The position numbers and the translations under genes were made by a program. The notes below the pieces were generated by a model that worked only from the letters and a program-made list of their open reading frames with translations, had not been told where the DNA came from and made no database searches. From the NCBI GenBank assembly GCA_030390025.1, contig CM059432.1, positions 100,690,001 through 100,754,000 on the forward strand: DNA of 64,000 nucleotides. Direction: 5' to 3'. Positions 3,475 to 58,675 of the stretch are shown piece after piece; within the stretch, counting starts at the first letter, position 1, and every line of letters starts with the position of its first letter. Origin of the DNA: Squalus acanthias (taxonomy: Eukaryota).

Positions 3475-5039
3475 ATAACAGAAAATGCTGGAAACACTCA
3501 GCGGGTCAGGCAGCATCCGTGGAGAGAGAAACAGAGTTAACGTTTCAGGTCTGTGACCCTTCGTCAGAACTGGAAAAAGTTAGAGATGTAACTGATTTTA
3601 AGCAGGTGCAGAGGCAGGGAAAGGGGGAGGGGAGGAAAGAACAAAAGGGACGGTCTGTGATAGGGTGGAAGGCAGGAGCGGTTAAATGTTGCAAATGGGG
3701 ATGGCAGAATCATCAACACCTGCCGCCTGAAAAAATAGGGGCAGAGGTTATGGTCTGAAATTGTTGAACTCGATGTTGAGTCCAGAAGGCTATAAAGTGC
3801 CTAATCGAAAGATGAGATGCTGTTCCTCGAGCTTACGTTGAGCTTCATTGGAACAGTGTAAGAGGCCGAGGACAGAGAGGTCAGAGTGGGAGTGGAGAGG
3901 AGAATTAAAGTGACAGGTGACTGGAAGCTCGGGGTCACCCTTATGGACTAAACGGAGGTGTTCCACAAAGCGGTCACCCAATCTGCGTTTGGTCTCCCCA
4001 ATGTAGAGGAGACCGCATCGTGAGCAGCAAATACAGTATACTAAATTGCAAGAAGTACAAGTAAATCGCTGTTTCACCTGAAAGGGGTGTTTGGGGCCCT
4101 GGACCGTGGGAAGGGAGGAGTTAAAAGGGCAGGTGTCGCATCTGCTGCACTTGCACGGGAAGGTACCGTGGGGAGGGGAGGGGAGGGGAGGGGCTGTTGG
4201 GGATGATTGAGGAGTAGACCAGGGTGTTGCAGAGGGAGCGGTCCCTTTGGAATGCTGAAAGGGGAGGGTAGGGGAAGATGCGTTTGGTGGTGGGATCACG
4301 CTGGAGGTGGTGGAAATGGCGGAAGATGATCCATTGAATGTGGAGGCTGGTGGGGTGAAAGGTGAGGACAAGGGGAACCTTATCGTCGTTCTGGGAGGGT
4401 GGGGATGGGGTGAGAGCAGAAATGCGGGAAATGGAACGGACACGGTCGAGGGCCGTGTCAACCACGGTAGAGGGGAATCCTCGGTTGTGGAAAAAGGAAG
4501 ACATATCGGAAGCACTAGGTGGCGGCGTCGGAACAGATGCAGCGGAGGCAGAGAAACTGGGAGAATGGGATAGAGTCCTTACAGGAAGCGGGATGGGAGG
4601 AAGTGTAGTCCAGGTAGCTGTGGGAGTCAGTGGGCTTATTGTGGATGTTTGTCGATAGCCTATCCCCAGAAATGGAGACAGAGAAGTCGAGGAAGGGAAG
4701 GGAAGAGTCAGAGATGAACCATGTGAAGGTGAGGGAAGGGTGGAAATTGGAAGCAAAGTGAATGAAATTTTCTAGTTCAGGGAGACAGCAGGAAACAACA
4801 CCAATACAGTTATCAATGTACCAGAAAAAGAGGTAAGGGAGGGGACCTGAGTAGGACTGGAACAAAGAATGTTCCACATATCCCACGAAAAGGCAGGCAT
4901 AGCTGGGGCCCATGTGGTTCCCATAGCAACACCTCTAATTTGGAGGAAGTGAGTGGAGTCAAAGGAGAAGTTGTTCAATGTGAGAACAAGTTCAGCCAGA
5001 CGGAGGAGGGTGGTGGTGGATGGGGACTGGTTGGGCCTG
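3475..5039 (-). mobile_element. Penelope-like retroelement, 5'-truncated and frameshifted (RT C-terminal part plus GIY-YIG endonuclease)
   Basis: Overlapping minus-strand ORFs. RT motifs FLQIRGVAMGT / MGPSYACLFVG / WYIDNC; GIY-YIG region NLVYCICCSRCGLLYIGETKRRLGDRFVEH; terminal sequence carries a hammerhead motif. Confidence 0.9.
3535..3571 (-). ncRNA. Minimal type I hammerhead ribozyme of the Penelope terminal repeat
   Basis: Minus strand reads AGTT-CTGACGA-AGGGTC ACA GACCT-GAAA-CGTT-AACT: CUGANGA and GAAA core boxes, helix II GGTC/GACC, helix I AGTT/AACT, and palindromic AACGTT in place of helix III. Confidence 0.75.
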
Positions 5040-9731: not shown

Positions 9732-11400
9732 ATGATGGCTACTCAGAGGCCCAGGGAGAGAACTCGCTGGTTTAGCGACCAGGCATTGGTGGCTCTGGTT
9801 GGCGCTGTGGAACGCCGACAGGCAGTGCTGTTCCCAGAGACTGGCAGGAGGCTGTTGCCCCGGGAGTTTACAAGGGAGTGAAGGAAGGTTCCCCAGCACG
9901 TTTCATCCAGGAGCCTGGTCCAAAGGATGCATACGCAGTGCCGCAGGAAGTTCAACGACCTCACTCAGGTAGTCAGGGTGAGTACATGCTTGAAAAACCT
10001 CTGCAGCCCACCATCTCAACCTCATTCTGAGCACAGATGGTGTAAATTTCCAAATCCCCAACACTCACCCAACAACAATGCCCATCTAATAAAAGTCACA
10101 TCCACATCCCACATCTTGCAGACTTTAACGGCTATTTAACTATGGTAGGCACATCTGCCAAACACATGGCTGCACACTCACTCAGACGCTGTCCTTTTTC
10201 TTTCACATATTCGGAGGGAGCAACAACGCACAGGAGGACGACAGGCGGAGCTGCACACCCTCAGACAACTGGAGGAGCGAGTCCAGAGACTCATCGCCAG
10301 TCATGTCGTTGACGCTGTGGCCGTTAAATAGGTTGTCCCCCTTGGGGACAGCAACGGTATATTCATCACCCTTATCTCCTCTCTCATACCACTTCCCCTC
10401 ACAACACCAGCCTTTCCCACTTCCCATCTAACGATACTGTCTTCATTCCTTGCTCCCTTCCTGCTCCCCTCTTGCACATTCCTGCTTTCAGATAGTGAGC
10501 CACCAACTGACCAGCCTGTTCCTCAGCCTCCCAGTGGCAGCGACGTTAGAGAGGAGGAGGAACACGAAGCCCGCGCCTCACCGCCTGTGTCTCCCAAGGG
10601 CGAGACATCCGATACTGGGGCCACACGGTCACTTGAGGGGAGCAGGGGATTTGGATCTGATGTGGGTGAAGCTCCGGGACCCAGCGGGCTGCAGCAATGC
10701 CATGGGGAAAGGAAAGCTCAGGGGCCATCTCCCCGGAGGGTGAGTGCGCGCACGAGTTCTGCTGCACAGGACTCGGATGGGGACCTCGATATAGTGGCCA
10801 TGAATACTCAGGCAATGAGCAAGCACACTGAGCTCATGGGTGCAATGGCAAGGGTGCCCGAGAGCATGGATGCACTGGCTAGGAGCGTGGAGGAGTCCGC
10901 TACCAGCACAGCTGTCATCTGTGCGCAAACCCATGATCTCATCCATGCCTCGTTGCAGAGGATGGCTGAATTGCAGAGAGACCTTGGGGACTCAGACCCC
11001 ATGCCGCGTGTAATAGGTGAGGTGGCAGCATGTATTGCAGCACAGGCCGAGGCAACGCAATGGCTTAGTGCTGGAATTGAGTCATTGGTTGGTGCCATCC
11101 AATGCCAGACTGCTCTCATGCAGTCTCAGATTGATGGCACACAAGCGCTGACAGCTGCCATCATCGCTGGGTCGTCCACAGTCCACCGGGGATCTCACGG
11201 TACCGCAGCAGGCCAGCAATCTGTGCTCGAGCAGATTGCTCCGGATGCTGAGGTACTGTCCCGGGGGAGTGGCAGTGTTTTGGTCGAACAGGAAGGTGCC
11301 GTCCTCTCTCAGGATGACAGCATTCCTGCTGCCACCACTGCCACTCTGCCACTATCTTGCCACAGCCTGACAACTTTGCTCATTTTACCCATTGGAGCTT
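9732..11400 (+). pseudogene. Harbinger Myb/SANT-like DNA-binding partner gene (NAIF1/MSANTD-like), intron-containing, with an in-frame stop
   Basis: MMATQRPRERTRWFSDQALVALVGAVERRQAVLFP...E*RKV...QCRRKFNDLTQVVR then a GTGAGT donor after 9977. TGA at 9879-9881 sits where a Trp is expected. A downstream coiled-coil-like ORF lies at 10587-11603. The 3' end is approximate. Confidence 0.72.
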
Positions 11401-11473
11401 TGCCCGGTAATAGGGGCTGCGGGATGGCTGTAATGATGTGCTTTTCCATCCCAAAAGCTATCTTCTCTGTCAT

Positions 11474-12635
11474 TCATCTGAAGCGGTGTCTTATGAGGCG
11501 TTCACGAACTGCCCTTGCAGAGGCAACATTGAGCGCCTCCCTCCCACGTTGCTGCTGCTCATCCTCCTCTTCATCCTCCTCCTCTCCCTCTTCCTCCTCC
11601 TGAGGTGGTGCACCAATCCCTGGTGGCAAGGGCTGTGCCCTCAGAATTGCGAGGTTGTGAAGCATGCAGCACACAACAATGAAAAGCGATACTCGCTCAG
11701 GAGAGTACTGCAGGGCTCCTTCAGAGTGGTCAAGACACCGGAACCGTTGCTTTCAAGACGCCGATCGTCTGTTCAATGAGGTTCCTAGTGGCGCTATGGC
11801 TCTCATTGTATGCGAACTCAACAGGAGTGTTGGGGTTATGGAGCGGTGTCATCAGCCAGGTGCAGAGTGGATAACCCTTGTCCCCAAGGAGCCAGCCACG
11901 AGGATGATACGGTGGGTGGAAGAGGTCTGGGACACCAGTCTGGTGCAGGATGGATGCATCGTGGCTGATGCCAGGATAGCAGGCATTGACAGTGAGGATG
12001 CGCTGTCTGTGGTTGCACACCAACTGGATGTTGAGAGAGTGGAAGCATTTGCGGTTGTGGAAAACCTCTGCATTTTCATGAGGAGCCAGCAATGCCACAA
12101 GCGTGCAGTCAATGGCGCCCTGAACCATGGGGAAGCCCGCTATCCTAGCGAAGACACATGCACGTTCACGCTGTTTGTCTCGGTTCATGGGGAATGAGAT
12201 ATAGTCCCTTCTCCTTTGGTATAGAGCATTTGTGACCTCCCGGATGCAACAATGGACGGCAAACTGGGAGGTATGCGTAATATCCCCTGTTGAAGCCTGG
12301 AAGTAGCCGCTGGCATAGAAATTAAGAGCCATCGTCACCTTCACTGCCACCGACAGAGACGTCCTGATCCTGAGCTGAGGCTGAAGCTCTGGCTGTAGGA
12401 GGTGGCAGAGCTCTGTGACCATCTCCTTGCCGAAGCGCAGCCTTCTAAAACACTGCTCCTCGGACAAATGAATATAGGAGAAATGCTCCCGGAATATCCT
12501 GGGAGGGTAAGGTCTCCTGTGCAGAGGCCTGTTGGCCCTCCTCCCTCTGGCCACGTTTGCCACTCTCTCTCTGCACCTCTGCTGCCTCCGAACGTGAAGC
12601 TGGAGGACGAGGCCCCGTGTTAGTACAGCCCCCAT
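11474..12635 (-). pseudogene. Harbinger DDE transposase (HARBI1-like), frameshifted near 11750
   Basis: [44 protein letters not shown]. After a frameshift it continues as QRFRCLD..GALQYSP..VCCMLHN with an acidic tail ending at 11474. Confidence 0.9.
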
Positions 12636-16129: not shown

Positions 16130-17240
16130 AAAACTGAAGTCAATGGGAATCGGGGGGAAAACGCTCCACTGGCTGGAGGCATACCTAGCACAAAGGAAGA
16201 TGGTTGTGGTGGTTGAAGGTCAATCATCACAGCCCTAGGACATCACTGCAGGAGCTCCTCAAGGCAGCGTCCTAGGCCCAACCATCTTCAGCTGCTTCAT
16301 CAATGACCTTCCCTCCAACATAAGGTCAGAAATAGGGATGTTCGCTGATGACTGCACATTGTTCAGCGCCATTCACAACTCCACGGATAATGAAGCAGTC
16401 CATGCCCGCATGCAACTGGACCTGGACGACGTTCAGGCTTGGGCTGATAAGTGGCAGGTAACATTCGCGCCACAGAAGTGCCAGGCAATGACTATCTCCA
16501 ACAAGCAAGAGTCTAACCACCTCCATTTGACATTCAACGGCATTACCATCACCGAATCCCCCACCATCAACATCCTGGGGGTCACCATTGACCAGAAGCT
16601 TAACTGGACCAGCCACATAAATACTGTGGCAACAAGAGCAGGTCAGAGGCTAGGTATTCTGCGGCGAATGTCTCACCTCCTGACTCCCTAAAGCCTTTCC
16701 ACCATCTACAAAGCACAAGTAAGGAGTGTGATGGAATATTCTCCACTTGCCTGGATGAGTGCAGCTCCAACAACACTCAAGAAGCTTGACACCATCCAGG
16801 ACAAAGCAGCCTCTTGATTGGCACCCCATCCACCACCTTAAACATTCACTCCCTCCACCACCGGCGAACCGTGGCTGCAGGGTGTACCATCCACAAGATG
16901 CACTGCAGCAACTTGCCAAGGCTTCTTCGGCAGCACCTCCCAAACCCGCGACCTCTTCCACCTAGAAGGACAAGGGCAGCAGGCACATGGGAACACCACC
17001 ACCTCCAAGTTCCCTCCAAGTCACATACCATCCTGACTTAGAAGTATATCGCCAATCCTTCATCATCGCTGGGTCAAAATCCTGGAACTCCCTACCTAAC
17101 AGCACTGTGGGTGTACCTTCACCACACAGACTGCAGCGGTTCAAGAAGGCGGCTCACCACCACCTTCTCAAGGGCAATTGGGGATGGGCAATAAATGCTG
17201 GCCTTGCCAGCGACGCTCACATACCATAAACGAATAAAAC
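16130..17240 (+). mobile_element. 5'-truncated copy of the tRNA-headed APE-RT LINE family (CR1/Jockey group)
   Basis: QGSVLGPTIFSCFINDL, MFADDC, WADKWQVTF; 3' tail GGCAATAAATGCTGGCCTTGCCAGCG followed by an A-rich end. Confidence 0.9.
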
Positions 17241-17941: not shown

Positions 17942-18972
17942 CAACAACAACTTGTATTTATATAGCGCCTTTAACGTAGTAAAACGTCCCAAGGTGCTGC
18001 ACAGGAGTATTATAAGACAAAAAATTTGACACCAAGTCACATAAGGATAAATTAGGGCAGGTGACCAAAAGCTTGATCAAAGAGGTAGGTTTTAAGTAGC
18101 GTCTTAAAGGAGGAAAGAGAGATAGCGAGGCGGAGAGGTTTAGGCAGGGAATTCCAGAGCTTAGGGCCGAGGCAACAGAAGGCACGGCCACCAAAGTTTG
18201 AGCGATTATAATCAGGGATGCTCAAGAGGGCAGAATTAGAGGAGCGCAGATATCAAGGGGGGTTGTGGGGCTGAAGGAGATTACAGAGATAGGGAGGATG
18301 AGAATTTTGAAATCGAGGCGCTGCTTAACCGGGAGCCAATGTAGGTCAGTGAGCACAGGGGAGCTGGGTGAATGGGATTTGGTGCGAGTTAGGACATGGG
18401 CAGCTGAGTTTTGGATGACCTCAAGTTTACGTAGGGTAGAATGTGGGAGGCCAGCCAGGAGTGCGTTGGAATAGTCAAGTCTAGAGGTAACAAAGGCATG
18501 GATGAGGGTTTCAGCAGCAGATGAGCTGAAGCAAGGGCGGAGACGGGCAATGTTACGGAGGTGGAAATAGACAGTCTTTGTTATGCTGCGGATATGTGGT
18601 CGGAAGCTCATTTCAGGGTCAAATATGACACCAAGTTTGCGAACAGTGTGGTTTAGCCTCAGACAGATGTTAATGAGAGGGATGGAGTCAGTGGCTAGGG
18701 AACGGAGTTCATGGCGGGGACCGAAAACATTGGCTTCAGTCTTCCCAATATTTAATTGGAGAATATTTCTGCTCATCCAGAACTGTATGTCGGACAAGCA
18801 GTCTGTCAATTTACAGACCGTGGAGGGGTCAAGAGAAGAGGTAGTGAGGTAGAGCTGGGTGTCGTCAGCGTACATGTGGAATCTGACGCTGTGTTTTCGG
18901 ATGATGTCGCCAAAGGGCATCATGTAGATGAAAAATAGGAGGGGGCCAAGGATAGATCCCTGGGGGAACCCT
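17942..18972 (-). mobile_element. L2 LINE, 5'-truncated (RT C-terminus plus 3' UTR)
   Basis: PQGSILGPLLF..FHMYADDTQLY..LIHAFVTSRLDYSN..LHWLPV; tail AAAGGCGCTATATAAATACAAGTTGTTGTTG. Confidence 0.92.
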
Positions 18973-20076
18973 GAGATGCCTTGGGACATTTTACTGTGTT
19001 AAAGGCGCTATATAAATGCAAGTTGTTGTTTTTGCTTTTATTCCAGCTGAACTTTGCACATGGAATGCCAATTTGCATAAATAGCCATTGTTTTAAAGGG
19101 GTAGTCTTTTTCTAATACAGCAGTGAATCCTATTGTATTTTAATCATGTACTATCTGAGGCTGAAGCAGAACAAATTCTTTGAAAGCCTAATCCCTGTTT
19201 CTGATCCACTGCCAGCAGTTCTACACAAGTCATATGCTAAGCTCTTGGAGCACACTTCGGCTCATCCAAACTGTCAAAGCCTGGGTGACACAATCAAAAT
19301 TCACCTGGAACTAACACAATGGGTAAACACAGTTGTAATCATTAGCAGCGCTGTCACTGCCTGGAATAAATCCCCAGGGCCATCCACAACGTCAACAACT
19401 CAGTAACATTTACTCACCAGAACAATGCATCAGATATGCTACATGTATGTCAATGTGTCATAATCAAAGAATAACTGCAATAAAAATACACTACAATCTA
19501 ATTTCCAATTGTTCTGGTCAGTGTTCTCCAATTGTGATTTCATACAAGTCATGGCTCTGAATTCAATTTCCACCTACAAGTCAGATGTAGTAATAGTGGC
19601 ATCCAGCACTTCCAAAAATCCAAAGGCACACCTTCTCATTTCTGTGAACTTCTTTTCATGCTGATGATGGGAAGTGTTTTACTAAACAGAGAGAACAGTA
19701 ATAGCAAAGACCCTGAGCACTGGAGGTCCTCCACTCCCACATGAGGAAATAATACACATGCAACAGTCCATTTTACTGTTAGTGTTTCATTCAGAAAAAA
19801 AAATGATGGACACCCCATTGTAAATTTCAATCCTCTGGATGCAAGTCAACCATCACAAACTCTATGACCTGACATCTATTGCTGTTTAACTGACCATACT
19901 GCAACAAACTTTATGTTATGGAGAATTAATAAATGGTTATTTCCTTTAGTAATAGAATAGTCTTGTGAAGTACAGCCCAGAATTCTAACATTCCTGAAAA
20001 CGGTTAAGCGCTTCCTGAATTGAACTGTTCAATAATCACGTGATTAAATAGCCAGATTATATAAAGCCTGGCAAAG

Positions 20077-25891: not shown

Positions 25892-28800
25892 TGGAGTTCA
25901 ATTCACCACGGCAGCTGGGGAATTTAAATTCAGTTAATTAAATAATCTGGAATAAAAAGCTAGTATCAGTAATGGTAACCATGAAACTATGAGATTGTCG
26001 TAAAAACCCATCTGGTTCACTAATGTCCATTAGGGAAGGAAATCTGCTGCCCTTACCTGGTCTGGCCTATATGTGCCTCCAGACCCACAGCAATGTGGTT
26101 GACTCTTAACTGCCCTCTGAAATGGTCTAGCAAGCCACTCAGTTGTAACAAACCGCTACGAAACACAATAATAAGAATGAAACCGGACGGACCACCTGGC
26201 ATCGACCTCGGCACCGGCTATAGACACGGCAATGGCACACCCAGCCCAATCAACCCTGCAAAGTCCTCCTCACCAACATCTGGGGACTTATGCCAAAATT
26301 GGGAGAGCTGTCCCACAGACTAGTCAAGCAACAGCCTGACATAGTCATACTCACATAATCATACCTTTCAGCAAATGTCCCAAACTCCTCCATCACCATC
26401 CCTGGATATGTCCTGTCCCACCGACAGGACAGACCCACCAGGGGTAGTGGTATACAGTCAGGAAGGAGTGGCCCTGGGAGTTCTCAACATTGACTGCGGA
26501 CCCCATGAAGTCTCATGGCTTCAGGGCAAGCATGGGCAAGGAAACCTTCTGCTGATTACCACCGTCCGCCCTCCCTCAGCTGATGAATCAGTACTCCTCC
26601 ATGTTGAACACCACTTGGAAGAAGCACTGAGAGTAGCAAGAGCTCAGAATGTACTCTGGGTGGGGGACTTCAATGTCCATCACCAAGAGTGGCTCGTTAG
26701 CACCACTACTGACCGAGCTGGCCGAGTTCTGAAGGACATAAATCCAGTCTGGGCCTGCGACAGGTGGTGAGAGATCCGACACGAGGGAAAAACCTACTTG
26801 ACCTCGTCCTCACCAATCTACCTGTCGCAGATGCATCTGTCCATGACAGTATTGGTAGCAGTGACCACCACACAGTAATTGTGGAGTCGAAGTCCCGTCT
26901 TCACACTGAGGACACCCTCCATCGTGTTTTGTGGCACTACCACCCTGCTAATTGGGATAGATTCAGAACAGATCTAGCAGCTCAAAACAGGGCATCCATG
27001 CGGCGCTGTGGGCCATCAGCAGCAGCAGAATTGTATCCCACCACAATCTGTAACCTCATGGCCCGGCATATCTCTCACTCTACCATTACCATCAAGCCAG
27101 GTGACCAACCCTGGTTTAATAAAGAGTGCAGAAGAGCATGCCTGGAGCAGCACCAGGTGTACCTAAAAGTTAGGTGCCAACCTGGGGATGCTGCAACACA
27201 GGGCTAAGCGATCCCACAATCAACGGATCAGATCAAAGCTCTGCAGTCCTGCCACATCCAGTCGTGAATGGTGGTGAACCATTAAACAACTAACGGGAGG
27301 AGGAGGCTCCATGAATATCCCCATCCTCAATGATGGTGGAGCCCAGCACGTGAGTGCAAAAGAAAAGGCTGAAGCGTTTGTAACCATCTTCAGCCAGAAG
27401 TGCCGAGTGGATGATCCAAATCAGCCTACTCCTGAGGTCCCCACCATCACAGAAACCAGTCTACAGCCAATTCGATTCACTCCATGTGATATCAAGATAT
27501 GGCTGAGCGCACTGGATACAGCAATGACTATGGGCCCCGACAACATCCCGGCTATCGTGCTAAAGACTTGTGCTCCAGAACTAACCACCCCTCTAGCCAA
27601 GCTGTTCCAGTACAGCTGCAACACTGGCATCTATCCGACAATGTGGAAAACTGCCCAGGTATGTCCTGTCCACAAAAAACAGGACAAATCCAATCCGGCC
27701 AATTACCGCCCCATCAGTCTACTCTCAATCATCAGCAAAGTGATGGAGGTATCATCGACAGTGCTATCAAGCGGCACTTACTCACCAATAACCTGCTCAC
27801 TGATGCCCAGTTTGGGTTCCGCCAAGACCACTCGGCTCTCGACCTCATTACAGCCTTGGTCCAAACATGGACAAAGGAGCTGAATTTCAGAGGTGAGATG
27901 AGAGTGACTGCTCTTGACATCAAGGTAGCATTTGACCGAGTGCGGCATCAAGGAGCCCTAGTAAAACTGAAGTCAATGGGAATCGGGGGTGGGGGGGGGG
28001 GTGAAATGCTCCACTGGCTGGAGTCATACCTAGCACAAAGGAAGATGGTTGTGGTGGTTGAAGGTCAATCATCACAGCCCCAGGACATTACTGCAGGAGT
28101 TCCTCAGGGCAGTGTCCTAGGCCCAACCATCTTCAGCTGCTTCATCAATGACCTTCCCTCCAACATAAGGTCAGAAATGGGGATGTTTGCTGATGACTGC
28201 ACAGTGTTCGTGCCATTCACAACTCCTCAGATAATGAAGAAGTCCATGTCCGCATGCAAAAAGAGCTGGACATCGTTCAGGCTTGGACTGATAAGTGGCA
28301 GGTAACATTCACGTCACAGAAGTGCCAGGCAATGACTATCTCCAACAAGCGAGAGTCTAACCACCGCCCCTTGACATTCAACGACACTACCATCGCCGAA
28401 TCCCCCACAATCAACATCCTGGGGGTCACCATTGACCAGAAACTTAACTGGACCAGCCATATAAATACTGTGGCAACAAGAGTAGGTCAGAGGCTAGGTA
28501 TTCTGCAGCGAGTGTCTCACCTCCTGACTCCCCAAAGCCTTTCCACCATCTACAAGGCACAAGTAAGGAGTGTGATGGAATACTCTCCACTTGCCTGGAT
28601 GAGTGCAGCTCCAACAACACTCAGGAAGCTCGACACCATCCAGGACAAAGCAGCCCGCTTGATTGGCACCCAATCCACCACCTTAAACATTCACTCCCTC
28701 CATCACCGGCGTACCGTGGCTGCAGTGTGTACCATCTACAAGATGCACTGCAGCAACTCATCAAGGCTTCTTCGGCAGCACCTCCCAAACTTGCGACCTC

Positions 28801-29073
28801 TTCCACCTAGAAGGACAAGGGCAGCAGGTGCATGTGAACACCACCATCTCCAAGTCACACACCATCCTGACTTGGAAACATATTGCCATTCCTTCGTCGC
28901 TGGGTCAAAATCCTGGAACTCCCTACCTAACAGCACTGTGGGAGTACCTTCACCACACGGACTGCAGCGGTTCAAGAAGGCGACTCACCACCACCTTCTC
29001 AAGGGCAACTAGGGATGGACAATAAATGCTGGCCTTGCCAGCGATGCCCACATCCCATAAACAAATAAAAAAA
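25892..29073 (+). mobile_element. Near full-length tRNA-headed APE-RT LINE (single ORF, decayed)
   Basis: Begins at a B-box remnant (GGAGTTCAATTC). APE motifs TNIWGL, WVGDFN, LLDLVL, SDH; RT motifs NYRPISLL, QFGFR, GVPQGSVLGP, FADD; A-rich tail. Confidence 0.9.
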
Positions 29074-40232: not shown

Positions 40233-40333
40233 GTAACATAGGCTGCTAGATACATGTCAGTACTCATGGTTCCTGAGATGATTTCAGTCATGTAAAAAGG
40301 AGATGTTTAGCTAAAAGATCAGAATTGCGGGAA

Positions 40334-42849
40334 TGGTACCATAGTGGTAATGTCACTGGGCTAGTAATCAAAAGGCCTGGACCAATGATCCAGAGACATG
40401 AGTTCAAATCCCACCACGGCAGCTGGGGAATTTAAATTCAGTTAATTAAATAAATCTGGAATAAAAAGCTAGTATCAGTAATGGTAACCATGAAACTATC
40501 GGATTGTCGTAAAAACCCATCTAGTTCACTAATGTCCTTTAGGGAAGGAAATCTGCCGTCCTTACCTGGTCTGGCCTATATGTGACTCTTAACTGCCCTC
40601 TGAAATGGCCTAGCAAGCCACTCAGTTGTAACAAACCACTACGAAACACAGTAAGAATGAGACCGGACGGACCACCAGGCATCGACCTCGGCACCGACTA
40701 CGGACATGGCAATGGCACACCCAGCCCAGTCGACCCTGCAAAGACTTGTGCCAAAATTGGGAGAGCTGTCCCACAGACTAGTCAAGCAACAGCCTGACAT
40801 AGTCATACTCACAGAATCATACCTTTCAGCCAATGTCCCAAACTCCTCCATCACCATCCCTGGGTTCGTCCTGTCCCATCGACAGGACAGACCCACCAGA
40901 GGCAGTGGTATACAGTCGGGAAGGAGTGGCCCTGGGAGTCCTCAACATTGACTCCGGACCCCATGAAGTCTCATGTCTTCAGGGCAAGCATGAGCAAGGA
41001 AACTTCCTGTTGATTACCTCATACCGCCCTCCCTCAGCTGATAAATCAGTACTCCTCCATGTTGAACACCATTTGGAAGAAGCACTGAGAGTAGCAAGAG
41101 CTCAGAATGTACTCTGGGTGGGGGACTTCCATGTCCATCACCAAGAGTGGCTCGGTAGCACCACTACTGACCGAGCTGGCTGAGTCCTGAAGGACATAGC
41201 TGCCAGTCTGGGCCTGCGACAGGTGGTGAAAGAACCAACACGAGGGAAAAACCTACTTGACCTCGTCCTCACCAATCTACCTGTCGCAGATGCATCTGTC
41301 ATGACAGTATTGGTAGCAGTGACCACCGCACAGCAAAGGTTATGGGCCCCGACAACATCCCGGCTATCATGCTGAAAACTTGTGCTCCAGAACTGTTCTC
41401 TAGCCAAGCTGTTCCAGTGCAGCTACAACACTGGCATCTATCCGACAATGTGGAAAACTGCCCAGGTATGTACTGTCCACAAAAAGCAGGACAAATCCAG
41501 TCCGGCCCATCAGTCTACTCTCAATCATCAGCAAAGTGATGGATGGTGTCGTCGACAGTGGTACCAAGCAGCACTTACTCACCAATAGCCTGCTCACGGA
41601 TTCCCAGTTTGGGTTCCGCCAAGACCATTCGGCTCCCGACCTCATTTCAGCCTTGGTCCAAACATGGACAAAGGAGCTGAATTCCAGAGGTGAGGTGAGA
41701 GTAACTGCCTTTGATATCAAGGCAGCATTTGACTGGGTGTGGCATCAAGGAGCCCTCGTAAAATTGAAGTCAATGGGAATCGGGGGGGAAAACGCTCCAC
41801 TGGCTGGAGTCATACCTAGCACAAAGGAAGATGGTTGTGGTGGTTGAAGGTCAATCATCACAGCCCCAGGACATTGCTGTAGGAGTTCCTCAGAGCAGTG
41901 TCCTAGGCCCAACCACCTTCAGCTGCTTCATCAATGACCTTCCCTCCAACATAAGGTCAGAAATGGGGATGTTCGCTGATGACTGCACAGTGTCCAGTGC
42001 CATTTGCAACTCCTCAGATAATGAAGCAGTCCATTCCCGCATGCAAAAAGACCTGGACAACGTTTAGGCTTGGGCTGATAACTGTCAGGTAACATTCGCA
42101 CCACAGAAGTGCCAGGCAATGACTATCTCCAACAAGCAAGAGTCTAACCGCCGCCCCTAGACATTCAAAGGCATTAGCATCGCCGAATCCCCCACCATCA
42201 ACATCCTGGGGGTCACTATTGACCAGAAACTTAACTGGACCAGCCAGATAAATACTGTGGCAACAAGAGCAGGTCACAGGCTAGGTATTCTGCAGCGAGC
42301 GTCTCACCTCCTGACTCCCCAAAGCCTTTCCACCATCTACAAGGCGGTGTACTCATAAGGAGTATGATGGAATACTCTCCACTTGCCTGGATGAGTGCAG
42401 CTCCAACAGCACTCAAGAAGCTCGACACCATCCAGGACAAAGCAGCCCGCTTGATTGGCACCCCATGCACCACCTTAAACATTTACTCCCTCCACCACCG
42501 GCGCACCGTGGCTGCAGTGTGTACCATCTACAAGATGCACTGCAGCAACTCACCAAGGCTTCTTCGGCAGCACCTCCCAAACCTGCGGCCTCTACCACCT
42601 AGAAGGACAAGGGCAGCAGGCTTATGGGAACACCACCAAGTTACACACCATCCTGACTTGGAAATATATCGCCGAACTTTCATCGTCGCTGGGTCAAAAT
42701 CCTGGAACTCCCTACCTAACAGCACTGTGGGAGTACCTTCACCACACGAACTGCAGCGGTTCAAGAAGGCGGCTCACGACCACCTTCTCAAGGGCAACTA
42801 GGGATGGACAATAAATGCTGGACTTGCCAGCGATGCCCACATCCCATAA
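40334..42849 (+). mobile_element. tRNA-headed APE-RT LINE with intact 5' end and an internal deletion of about 0.65 kb
   Basis: A box TACCATAGTGG (40337-40347) and B box GAGTTCAAATCC (40400-40411), then APE (VILTESYL, WVGDF) and RT (QFGFR, FADD). Deletion junction near 41333 relative to the 25892 copy. Confidence 0.9.
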
Positions 42850-53039: not shown

Positions 53040-53610
53040 TAGTATTCTGCGGCGAGTGTCTCACGTCCTGACTCCCCAAAGCCTTTCCACCATCTACAAG
53101 AAGTGTGATGGAATACTCTCCACTTGCCTGGATGAGTGCAGCTCCAACAACACTCAAGAAGCTCGACACCATCCAGGACAAAGCAGCCCACTTGATTGGC
53201 ACCCCATCCACCACCTTAAACATTCACTCCCTCCACCACTGGCGTACCGTGGCTGCAGTGTGTACCATCTACAAGATGCACTGCAGCAACTCGCCAAGGC
53301 TTCTTCGGCAGCACCTCCCAAACCCGCGACCTCTTCCACCTAGAAGGACAAGGGCAGCAGGCGCATGGGAACACCACTACCTCCAAGTTGCCCTCCAAGT
53401 CACACACCATCCTGACTTGGAAATGTATCGCCGATCCTTCATCAACGCTGGGTCAAAATCCTGGAACTCCCTACCTAATAGCACTGTGGAAGTACCTTCA
53501 CCACACGGACTGCAGCGGTTCAAGAAGGCGGCTCACCACCACCTTCTCAAGGGCAACTAGGGATGGGCAATAAATGCTGGCCTTGCCAGCGACACCCACA
53601 TCCCATAAAC
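53040..53610 (+). mobile_element. 3' fragment of the tRNA-headed APE-RT LINE family
   Basis: MEYSPLAWMSAAPTTLKKLDTIQDKAA...HLLKGN* and the same 3' tail. Confidence 0.88.
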
Positions 53611-53699
53611 GTATATTTTTTTTTAAAGTGAACGATAATCCTGTGCTCTAAGTCCAATTGAAAAGCCAATCATTGACAGAACACTCGTGTTCTGTCTAC

Positions 53700-54282: not shown

Positions 54283-56462
54283 GGGCTGGATTTTGTCAAT
54301 GGGGACGTGATGGAGGCGGGACTCCCACTTTTTGGGTTGTAGTCCTGCCTCCATCGACTTGTGGCCAACCCACTCGATTTTCCCTTGAAAGTGAGCAAGG
54401 GGCCTCCATTTCTGCTGAAGCCACAGGGGAAGCACTACATAGGAGCACGCGTAAGAGGAAGATAAAGCACAATTAGTCACACGGGCAGTCACTTGGGTGT
54501 TTTTTTGTGTTTAATAATTAAATGCCATCCCTTTGTGAATATATTAAACTCTGGTGATGGCAAACTGTTGACGTTATGGCCTCTGTGATTTCGGTTTTGG
54601 AAGTTCCACATTGCGGCCTCAGCGAGACTTGCTTGGTCAGGTTGGTGGTCAGAGTGAGAGAAAGCCAGAGAATCATGCCCATTGTCTATCTTGTGCTAAG
54701 AAGGAGCCAAGCACATGTGCTAGAATGGGCAGCCTAAGCAAATCTGGCCAAGATGAGTGCATTCCTTGCATTCCGGCCAGCAATGTGCTCACGTGCTGCT
54801 GCTGGTTAATGCGCCTCCGTTCGGTCATCATTCTCCTCCTCCTTCTCTTCATCCGAGGAGGCTATGTACTGAGCCACTTGCTCCTCAGGAAGCTGCAAGC
54901 CACGATGCCGTGCGATGTTGTGCAGTGCACAGCAGACCATGACCATTCTGGAGACCCTGGCTGCTGAGTACTGCAGGGCTCCACCTGATCGGTCAAGGCA
55001 TCTGAATCGCATCTTCAGCAAGCCGATGGTTTGTTCGATGATGGACCTGGTCGAAATGTGGCTGGCGTTGTTGCGCTCCTCAGCTTCGTTCGCTGGCCTC
55101 CTGATCGGCGTCATTAGCCACGTCGTCAGGGGGTAGCCCTTGTCTCCAAGTAGCCATCCGTTAAGTTGGTTTGGCGGCTTGAAGAGCGGAGGCACACTAG
55201 AGTTCTGCAGGAGGAACGAGTCATGGCAACTGCCGCAGTACTTGGCATAAACATGCAAAATCTCCTTCTTGTGGTTATACACCAGCTGTACATTGAGGGA
55301 GTGGAAGCCCTTGCGGTTGACAAAAATAGCTGGGCTGTGATGGGGTGCCCTCAGGGCCACATGTGTGCAGTCTATGACGCCTTGCACCATTGGCATGCCT
55401 GCCATATTTGCGAATCCAACCGCACACACGGTTATACTTGCTTGATCCATTGAAAAGTTTATGTAATTGTGCGCCTTTGTGAAGAGGGCATCGGTAAACT
55501 GCGTGATGTAACTGCGAGCAGCCGACTGGGAGATGCACCTGATGTCTGCTGATGATCCCTGGAAGGAGCCTGAAGCAAAAAAGTTGAGTGCGGTGGTGAC
55601 TTTGACAGCCACTGGTAAGGGGTGTCCACCGGATCCTCTGGGCTCCAGGTGTTGGTGCAGCATTGCGCAGATGTCTCCGACAACTTCTCGTGAAAGTCTC
55701 AGCCTCCTTTGGCACTGCTGCTCACTCATGTTAAGGAAGCTCATCCTCTGTCTGTAAATCCTGAGAGGAGGGTATCTCCTGTGGTGACATGCTGCCATGC
55801 GCCGGCGCCTTCTGCCTTGTGCACCATCAGGTGGGTGAGCAGCAGGTTGTCGCTCCTGCTTGCTGTTCTGCCTGGTTCTGCTGCTGCCGTGGCTGCTCCT
55901 CATCCGAATCTGAGGTCCATGATGAAAGGAAATAAATGTTTCCCATGCTGCTGATAGATACTTCCGTTGGGGAAGCGTTCAGTCCAAGTGGGAGAGGGTT
56001 TTCCCAGGAGGTACCAAAGTAGATAGATCTCAGCTGCACCACCTCCGACTTCAGTAGGCCTGGAAAAAGTGCTCAAAGACCTGTGGAAAAAAAGTTCTGC
56101 CACCTGCAACTCATTCCTGTTGAAAGCTCCGTTTTTATGGTGGAGCTGCAGCTGTGAGGAGGTCAGCCACTTATCAACCCGCCAGGATTAGCTGGTGTGG
56201 TTTAGGAGCAGCGTGCAACACGCTGTAAATGTGGCAAAATAACAAAGGCCGGGGGAAATTGGATTATAGAGGCCTTTGAGCGCTTCTTAAGGGTCTTAAC
56301 TGCCTATTCTGCTTCTTGGAGGCGGGACCGAATCACACTCGTGAAGCCCGCCTCCGGCAAAGTTGCGCGGAGGCGGGGTTCCGAACCCACACTCAATTTT
56401 TGCAATTTTACCAACTGTCCCGCCTCCAAACTCGCCTCCTCAGGGTTGGTAAAATCACCCCC
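54283..56462. mobile_element. PIF/Harbinger element carrying only a transposase
   Basis: TIR-like ends GGGCTGGATTTT..GGAGGCGGGAC and GTCCCGCCTCC..AAAATCACCCCC enclose the transposase ORF. Confidence 0.8.
54806..55903 (-). CDS. Harbinger DDE transposase (HARBI1-like), uninterrupted 365-codon ORF
   Basis: [67 protein letters not shown]. The true N-terminus may be MGNIYFLSS at about 55946 in another frame. Confidence 0.85.
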
Positions 56463-56728
56463 TCAGTGTTTGCAGCACCTCAATGTTGTCAAACACTGAA
56501 AAAATCATCTGTCAAAAAGAAATGGTGGTGGCCCCTTTAAGAAAACTGGCAGATGACGCTTCATCAACTGACGTCATCTGACACCAGCTTTCTCTGAATT
56601 GGCCGGCAAGCCCGCAGGGCGGGCTTAACAAGGCCAACTGACGCAAAATAGCGTCTGTGCGTCGGACGTCGCTGGGGACGGGACTAGAACCCGAAAGGCA
56701 GCAGTCCCGCCCCCAACGCGCCTCTTCA
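56463..56728. mobile_element. Fragment of a relative of the 36675/45084 Harbinger family
   Basis: CAGTGTTTGCAGCACCTCAATG...TGACGTCATC...GCAGGGCGGGCTTAACAAG matches about 46582-46752. Confidence 0.65.
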
Positions 56729-56739
56729 GGTAAGATCCT

Positions 56740-57480
56740 GGCCAAAGTACTTGTTTAATTTCTCTGCCATTTCCTTATTCCCCATTATAACTTTTCCTGT
56801 CTCAGCCTGTAAGGGACCCACATTTACTTTTGCTAATCTTTTCCTTTTTACATACCTATAGAAGCTTTTACAGTCTGTTTTTATGTCTCTCGCTAGTTTA
56901 CTCTCATATTCTATTTTCCTTTTCTTGATCAATTTCTTGGTCCTCCTTTGCTGAATTCTAAAATCGTCCCAATCCTCAGGCTTACCACTCTTTTTGGTAG
57001 CATTATAAGTCTCTTCCTTTGATCTAATACTATCTTTAACTTCTCTTGCTAGCCACGTTTGGACCACTTTTCCTGTGGGGTTTTTGTGCCTTAAAGGAAT
57101 GTATATTTGTTGTAAATTATGTATCAATTCTTTAACTGCTAGCCATTGCTCATCTACTGTCATACCTTTTAATGTAGTTTCCCAATCTACCTTAGCCAAC
57201 TCGCCCCTCATAACTACGTAGTTTGCTTTGTTTAGATTTAAGACCCTAGTTTCGGATTTAACTAAGTTACCTTCAAACTCAATATAAAATTCTATCATAT
57301 TATGGTCACTTTTCCCTAAAGGTCCCTTTACTACAAGGATATTAATTAACCCTTTCTCGTTGCACAATACTAGATCTAAAATAGCCTGTTCCCTAGTTGA
57401 TTCCTCAACATACTGATCTAGAAATCTATCTTGCATACATTCCATGAATTCGTCCTCCACACTATTACTGCAAATTTGGT
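56740..57480 (-). mobile_element. CR1 LINE internal fragment (APE C-terminus and linker)
   Basis: QYVEESTREQAILDLVL..LGKSDHNMIEF..KSFYRYVKRK..MAEKLNKYF. Confidence 0.88.
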
Positions 57481-58675
57481 CTGGTTGTCTGCACCTCGGA
57501 CTCCAGCTCAACAACCCAAAGATGAAGTTCCTCGAGATGCAGGCACTTACTGCAGGCGTAGCCGTCCGGGATCGCGATGCTCTCCACAAACTCCCACAAG
57601 CTGAAGTTGCGGCACACCACCTGCACTGCCATCCCTATATAACCTTGTTTTATTTATTTAATTAGAGTTGATGTATTTTCATTAACTTAGCGTATACAGT
57701 AGTTTAGTTTTTTACCTAATTACTTGATCTAGTTTATTATTAGGTAGATAAAATTAAATATTTACCTGTAACACAAAGCACAAGAAGTATTGGAGGTAAA
57801 AAGCAGCACCTCCTTCCCCCTCTGCTCCGAATTTCAACTCTCTGCAAATTCCAAAATTTAACACTCTGTTTAAGTACACTCCCTTTAAGACCACTCTGTG
57901 AAGACCAGACCAAACTTTTGGACCGGTAAGGGCTGGTGTTTGGATTATGTAGACAAACACTACAGTTTGAAGTGATGCATTTTGGGAGGAAGAATGAGGA
58001 GAGACAATATAAACTAAATGGTACAATTTTAAAAGCGGGTAAGGAACAGGGAGATCTGTGGGTTCACAAACACAAATCTTTAAAGTTGACAGGACAAGTT
58101 GTTCAGGCAACAATGGGATTTCTCCAATTATTTCCCTTTTGAGCCATGATGGCACTTGACATATGCGGTTCCATGGGTACCAGCAGCTTTACAGTACCTG
58201 ACCCAAAAGGCAGTGTCATCAGGCTATTTGACTGTGGAGGGATTCACAGCTGGGCCTAATCTTGCTCTTAGCTGTCAGCCACACATACTTGCTTTACAGC
58301 AGGAATTACTACACTGTGATTAGGAGCAGAAACCCTGTCAAATTTTTCGCTTCACCAACCCAAGTAGCTGAGACTAACCGTAATAATTCAACTTTTACTC
58401 AACTAACTTCAAAAGTAATCCATTGGTTGTAACATGTTTTGGGACATCCTGAGGTTGTGAAAGGCGTTATATAAATGCAAGTCTTTCTTTTCTTTATACG
58501 CTTTGACTGAGTGGGAAGCCCCCATTCACAATATGGAATCAGTAACCTGTAACATTCATTCTTGTTGAACTCTTGCTGTATTTTTCACCTTCAATTTTAT
58601 TGTTACTAATATAAAACAGAAAATGCTAGCAAAATACAATAGCTTCAACAGTATCTGAAAAGGGATACTTTTGAA

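Follow-up and report, generated by a model that had tools for sequence, protein, structure and literature searches.

LINEs are classically coding elements transcribed by RNA polymerase II (Pol II), and SINEs are non-coding elements whose transcripts come from RNA polymerase III (Pol III). In the window, by which we mean the whole 64,000-nt stretch of the Squalus acanthias genome analysed here, a LINE coding frame runs on directly from a SINE-like head. Does such a locus record two elements that came to lie side by side, or a LINE that carries the promoter of a SINE, and in the latter case which polymerase transcribes it and from which codon is it translated? The reading that we favour, and consider somewhat probable, is that of an autonomous LINE which is likely transcribed by Pol III and translated independently of an AUG.

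The focal copy (40329–42849, plus strand) is a broken member of a family whose elements measure 3.3 kb and number in the thousands; four copies, all on the plus strand, lie in the window. Its parts and its relatives are as follows.

40329..40416, plus strand: tRNA-like head, the fixed 5′ end of the family (weak Rfam tRNA match; sharp 5′ boundary in independent copies)
40337..40347, plus strand: A box, with two changes relative to the family majority
40400..40411, plus strand: B box
40417..40628, plus strand: SINE body, common to the head-plus-tail SINEs, with a 26-nt deletion in the focal copy
40629..40742, plus strand: leader, with a GCT codon at 40638, a frame-keeping A-rich spacer and an out-of-frame ATG at 40657
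40743..42801, plus strand: APE endonuclease and reverse transcriptase (RT) frame, broken here (Pfam PF14529, PF03372, PF00078)
42780..42849, plus strand: short 3′ tail with a stable hairpin, common to the SINEs; the A tail of the focal copy is gone
25894..29073, plus strand: second copy, near full-length, from B box to A tail
16130..17239, plus strand: 5′-truncated copy, from RT to tail
53042..53615, plus strand: 5′-truncated copy, from the C-terminal part to the tail

The A box TACCATAGTGG (40337–40347) and the B box GAGTTCAAATCC (from 40400) of the focal copy lie where the first-pass annotation had placed them, with the element starting at 40329 rather than at 40334 as then proposed. This A box, which departs from the family majority TAGCGTAGTGG at two positions, is the only one among the window copies. 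An independent copy with the same architecture had also been reported at 25892–29073: its head-to-ORF junction is indeed the same, with 92.6% identity over aligned columns, but the copy starts at 25894 with the B box and thus lacks the A box. The focal copy itself is dead, having undergone an internal deletion of ~686 nt near 41330, further frameshifting indels and the loss of its A tail; a 22-nt deletion removes the first endonuclease residues.

Other mobile elements share the window. Two Harbinger-type DDE transposase frames (Pfam DDE_Tnp_4) lie on the minus strand, at 54806–55978 with 389 open codons and at 11730–12635. The latter stands tail-to-tail with a 423-codon open frame at 10332–11603 (plus strand) that has no Pfam hit and is possibly its partner gene. 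A minus-strand frame at 3790–4578 with a weak GIY-YIG hit (E 0.004) is likely a Penelope-type element, and the same strand carries an L2-type RT fragment with a YADD motif (18222–18998) and a CR1-type ORF2 fragment (56726–57634).

Throughout the 3.7-Gb genome, head and coding frame belong together. A 20-mer at the endonuclease start has 4393 exact matches. Among the first 30 of these copies by position, a sample that includes two near-duplicates, 19 reach the head start, one does so across an insertion, 10 are truncated within the head or body and none has another 5′ end. When copies outside the window are selected by their head, 24 of 29 enter the endonuclease, three skip ahead within the frame and two run straight to the tail; the head-to-ORF junction pattern has 359 exact matches in the genome and its reversed control none. 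These junction counts, the shared 5′ ends and the head-selected copies rule out a SINE that landed by chance before a truncated LINE and, with the like structure of the shark and ray consensuses, they uphold the heritable architecture that had been claimed for the locus. An upstream Pol II 5′ UTR with an ORF1, or a fused junction rare in the genome, had been named as observations that would speak against it; the former is seen in none of the 30 copies, and the latter is belied by the 359 matches. The absence of ORF1, with ~440 nt between element start and endonuclease, holds as well and had already been published as a general Zenon trait.

Headed copies have a median divergence of 3.9%, the older ones reaching 13%, and most full-length copies end in short A tails; no target-site duplications were evident by eye in 42 copies. 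Variants of the head and of the ORF co-segregate only partially. Of the copies extending as far as the endonuclease start, about two thirds go on to the start of the head, an unusually large share for a LINE, and headed copies (L091–L130) bear many deletions of 5–45 nt and some very large internal ones. Contigs filed under other organism labels bridge the body to the leader or endonuclease, and in the contig of the most distant run tested this body–endonuclease bridge has 78 different linker letters. Three old relatives (about 18–22% diverged) have no head upstream and may simply be 5′-truncated; when an old fragment of 22% divergence served as query, most matches belonged to the young family.

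The family has a catalogue entry already, among the elasmobranch Zenon LINEs of the CR1 group. Zenon elements, which lack ORF1 and end in a poly-A tail in every case, are described from sharks, rays, coelacanth and hagfish (Stuart et al. 2026, PMC13343379), and the single APE–RT frame, missing ORF1 and A tail of our family are common to the elasmobranch consensuses (SquAca_Zenon-1/2/3, CarCar, RhiTyp, ScyCan, HypSab). Over the first 400 nt, SquAca_Zenon-1 (3314 nt) equals our 3313-nt majority sequence by eye, bar one base in an A run. An L2 or canonical CR1 identity was dropped in view of this match and of the about 27% identity of the co-resident CR1. Within the first 400 nt of each consensus of PMC13343379, the tRNA-like head opens all seven shark and ray Zenons and is missing from those of the coelacanth and two hagfish, the coelacanth consensus being possibly incomplete (38.7% endonuclease coverage).

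The terms tRNA, promoter, polymerase III, Pol III and start codon do not occur in the main text and preprint of that study, whose main text likewise leaves undescribed the head, the terminator avoidance, the missing AUG and the SINE derivation reported here. A tRNA-headed autonomous LINE was found neither in passages of PMC5786205, PMC3747384, PMC5753468, PMC11481361, 10.1101/2025.02.02.635956 and 10.1101/443036 nor elsewhere in a search of openly available papers and preprints; the SINE head and what it implies seem not to have been reported in print. Outside elasmobranchs, no headed relatives were seen in the 32 of 80 metagenome loci with long matches, which is a weak test given that these LINEs are distant (24–37% identity) and T-rich: none gave an ARAGORN tRNA hit, and one has a B-box-like motif upstream.

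A majority sequence was derived from 42 headed copies, 40 fetched from the genome and two from the window. It is 3313 nt long and holds, like other Zenons, a single open frame with APE and RT Pfam domains, here of 973 codons. The substitution test was applied to 41 rows (one duplicate removed), with CpG-type changes left out. Singletons comprise 892 non-synonymous, 336 synonymous and 63 stop changes, against 62, 63 and 1 for substitutions found in at least three copies (P 3e-7); in the sixteen older headed copies, shared changes are 25 non-synonymous to 22 synonymous, against 363 to 143 among singletons (P 0.012). Because shared substitutions are poorer in non-synonymous changes, purifying selection must have acted on the frame in the source elements of the headed copies, and this marks the element as autonomous in type. 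That the family is a SINE-headed autonomous Zenon is highly probable.

Protein homologs are 33–44% identical and are mostly unnamed RT relatives. Many full-length relatives in this range (P0002–P0121) sit on contigs of 3–4 kb, which suggests that compact single-ORF Zenon-like elements are widespread. About 200 residues of an annotated shark aldo-keto reductase-like protein (P0081) are 89% identical to the family ORF, an overlap that probably reflects a gene-model artefact or exonisation.

The element has the tRNA-like head with A and B boxes that defines a SINE2, but at 3.3 kb and with a frame under purifying selection it is neither short nor non-coding. The Rfam tRNA match (40336–40415) is weak, at 13.8 bits and E 8.6, under the gathering score, and ARAGORN predicts no tRNA gene at the head, so that it is the boxes, together with a layout resembling tRNA arms, that suggest a tRNA origin. 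Both boxes can be recognised in sharks and in a ray, where compensatory changes are also seen by eye in the anticodon-like arm. The 3′ part of the SINE body is probably a Deu domain, a putative label that follows the description of SacSINE1 in PMC5499810. The body folds no better than shuffled sequences (z +0.55, −0.63 and −0.17, in a model without pseudoknots), which leaves an IRES-like fold unsupported; the hairpin of the 3′ tail is significant (z −3.2 for the family majority).

The end of the SINE body has 10,132 exact matches, the first 30 of which divide into 14 LINE continuations and 16 head-plus-tail SINEs, and exact junction patterns number 359 of LINE type and 256 of SINE type genome-wide. 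The breakpoints of the SINE-type copies vary widely and seven of the 16 keep at least 10 nt of LINE leader, which points to a recurrent process: the head-plus-tail SINEs seem to have arisen time and again from the Zenon LINE by loss of its interior. The first-pass annotation had offered a choice between an autonomous SINE-headed LINE and the parent of a SINE formed by internal deletion; with selection on the frame and SINEs of deletion type, both alternatives apply.

In their tRNA head, conserved body and LINE-derived tail these SINEs resemble the Deu-SINEs SacSINE1 and LmeSINE1, and at about 400–490 bp they compare with Deu-SINE lengths of up to 463 bp (PMC5499810). SacSINE1 and LmeSINE1 were described as non-autonomous and homologous to a LINE (L2-2_CM) by their tail alone, whereas here head and body form the 5′ end of the coding partner. 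A further likeness is with bipartite LINE-derived SINEs (Bov-A/Bov-tA, Vingi and RTE cases), in which both LINE ends are joined by internal deletion. In the bipartite model, however, the LINE is made by Pol II and receives its tRNA head after the deletion (PMC5786205), whereas here the full-length autonomous LINE is already headed.

The choice of polymerase can be approached through termination signals. The minimal Pol III terminators have been measured as T4+ and TVTTT (PMC8466645). The sense strand of the majority sequence has seven T3 runs and no T4; over its 3313 nt, T4+ and TVTTT together are absent, where base shuffling predicts 6.9 (P 0.0007) and shuffling of synonymous codons 3.5 (P 0.013), and the antisense strand has 20 minimal terminators. 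TVTTT was introduced once the T4 test had proved weak: the composition-matched RTE control, with one T4+ in 1856 nt, would lead one to expect 1.8 (P 0.17), a dinucleotide shuffle gives P 0.20, and T4 absence was given up as stand-alone evidence. TTT and TVTTT are depleted in the Zenon family and in neither control, RTE having 3 minimal terminators against 2.9 expected and CR1 21 against 15.3; the RTE control spans 1856 nt only, and family and RTE compared directly differ at P 0.046. T4+ runs number 12 in the 2991 nt of the CR1 control and 6–40 in each of the 32 of 80 metagenome LINE loci, but the former is T-richer and the latter are T-rich. A C motif of the same shape is also mildly low in the family (20 versus 28.6). 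A tRNA-type promoter at the 5′ end combined with the lack of Pol III stop signals makes a Pol III message likely, and through terminator avoidance Pol III transcription of the family, as far as sequence can tell, has moderate, indirect support and is somewhat probable.

The CR1 control is itself a low-copy young subfamily (L268–L271), with four loci of 97–99% identity and an open frame of up to 864 codons. A young RTE fragment recurs six times (L385–L390) at about 5.08–5.13 Mb of contig G000:C25, several times at about 5.6-kb spacing, which suggests a tandem array.

No in-frame ATG stands ahead of the endonuclease in the majority sequence. The ATG in the leader lies in another frame, and 36 of 83 copies, the older subfamily included, have ATA in its place. 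Upstream of it, the A-rich spacer keeps the frame in 77 of the 83; indels in the ORF body are divisible by three in 86 of 324 cases. Between old and young copies, leader changes are synonymous in six cases and non-synonymous in two when read in the ORF frame, against two and seven in the ATG frame. The leader evolves as coding sequence in the APE–RT frame. By eye, the consensuses of four other species have the GCT codon followed by 15 or 18 nt to the same point, with the ORF frame alone open, and slippage on AAT repeats could be the source of the three-base spacer steps. The published dogfish consensus is one base short in the leader spacer, unlike individual copies. Young copies have a stop just upstream of GCT, and the whale shark consensus a 1-nt gap; together these confine a non-AUG start to the neighbourhood of this codon. 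The out-of-frame ATG is kept in five of the seven published consensuses and in all five species, its frame being about equally conserved across species by eye. Overall, a non-AUG start seems slightly favoured.

An element with the same head and the same autonomy might nevertheless be a Pol II product, if the head hides a promoter for that enzyme or if host transcription reads through, and its poverty in T runs might simply follow from the C-richness of the coding strand or from the avoidance of premature processing. We consider this doubtful, although a C-rich RTE family of the same genome goes 598 codons without T4, mouse B2, a tRNA-derived SINE, reportedly has a Pol II promoter inside, and most published consensuses have the leader AUG. 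LINEs are also Pol II products in general, non-LTR elements using this enzyme, and Pol III limits length, being too weakly processive for long elements (PMC10886601). Against Pol II stand the 5′ end fixed at the tRNA head, as an internal type-2 promoter predicts, the boxes and compensatory arm changes kept across sharks and a ray (by eye), and a TTT and TVTTT depletion that the RTE and CR1 controls do not share. A non-autonomous ‘long SINE’ with a passenger LINE frame, mobilised in trans by an unheaded Zenon, is largely refuted and very improbable. It would agree with the missing in-frame AUG, with the lack of a fully open copy among the loci examined (longest frame 697 codons) and with the three headless old relatives; the latter, however, are maybe 5′-truncated, the headed lineages are under purifying selection, none of 30 copies has an alternative 5′ end, and the frame is kept together with the head across sharks and rays.

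Two other alternatives concern single parts of the account. As regards translation, a Pol III RNA might be read from the leader AUG and then pass into the APE–RT frame by a −1 frameshift or re-initiation. The context of the ATG is kept in the white shark, whale shark, catshark, stingray and dogfish consensuses (by eye) and its frame overlaps the start of the endonuclease, but the frequent ATA, the leader changes favouring the ORF frame and the lack of a standard slippery heptamer by eye make such a start unlikely. As regards origin, SacSINE1, with its tRNA head, Deu domain and LINE tail, also occurs in chimaera, and in coelacanth as LmeSINE1 (PMC5499810), which favours a Zenon that took over the head of an older SINE and then gave birth to new SINEs; the donor would probably have been a SacSINE1-type SINE and the event would predate the shark/ray split. 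Conversely, the headed LINE could be far older than elasmobranchs, SacSINE1 and coelacanth LmeSINE1 being deletion products of it and the body of such Deu-type SINEs its 5′ UTR. SINEs do arise here repeatedly by internal deletion, head, Deu domain and tail are common to SacSINE1 and LmeSINE1 (PMC5499810), and Deu SINEs are partnered by Zenon in bivalves (PMC11481361). Given the headless first 400 nt of the two hagfish and the possibly incomplete coelacanth consensuses, and the 32 metagenome LINEs with a single B-box-like motif among them, we regard this deeper ancestry as rather improbable.

Under the preferred reading of an autonomous Pol III-transcribed LINE, source copies would likely be transcribed at full length, and translation would likely begin without an AUG directly after the SINE body. 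With TFIIIC on the A and B boxes, Pol III would traverse the entire element and continue into the flanking DNA. Ribosomes would start on this uncapped RNA at or near the invariant GCT codon, and the resulting APE–RT protein would recognise the 3′ hairpin and integrate a new copy through target-primed reverse transcription. Since promoter and tail lie on one RNA, any internal deletion would yield a ready-made SINE.

Uncapped RNA and translation without a normal AUG are known from R2 elements, which are co-transcribed by Pol I and cut by a ribozyme, and from the intergenic (IGR) IRES of dicistroviruses, which starts at GCU, GCA or CAA. The likeness to Zenon is in the proposed uncapped, AUG-less translation; an IRES-like fold was not found here. 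The Cassandra, Helenus and Ajax TRIMs are likewise retroelements with a small-RNA-derived Pol III promoter, but they reach about 1.3 kb at most, do not code for protein and are non-autonomous (PMC10886601).

Taken to its full extent, and quite tentatively, the elasmobranch Zenon might be a self-mobilising protein-coding Pol III gene, with a 3.3-kb uncapped RNA, a GCU start and the SINE body as translation-entry element. Three questions could be tested on one clone, namely whether Pol III is able to make a 3.3-kb RNA that is translated, how uncapped RNA is translated without AUG and why the central domains of SINEs are conserved. Even under Pol II transcription, the internal deletion of an already headed LINE would be an unreported route to SINEs. 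If Zenon is a Pol III coding gene, an abundant family kept in sharks and rays and joining the traits of LINEs and SINEs would provide a natural Pol III messenger RNA, the conserved domains of SINEs would gain a function, and the birth of a SINE would be a one-step deletion.
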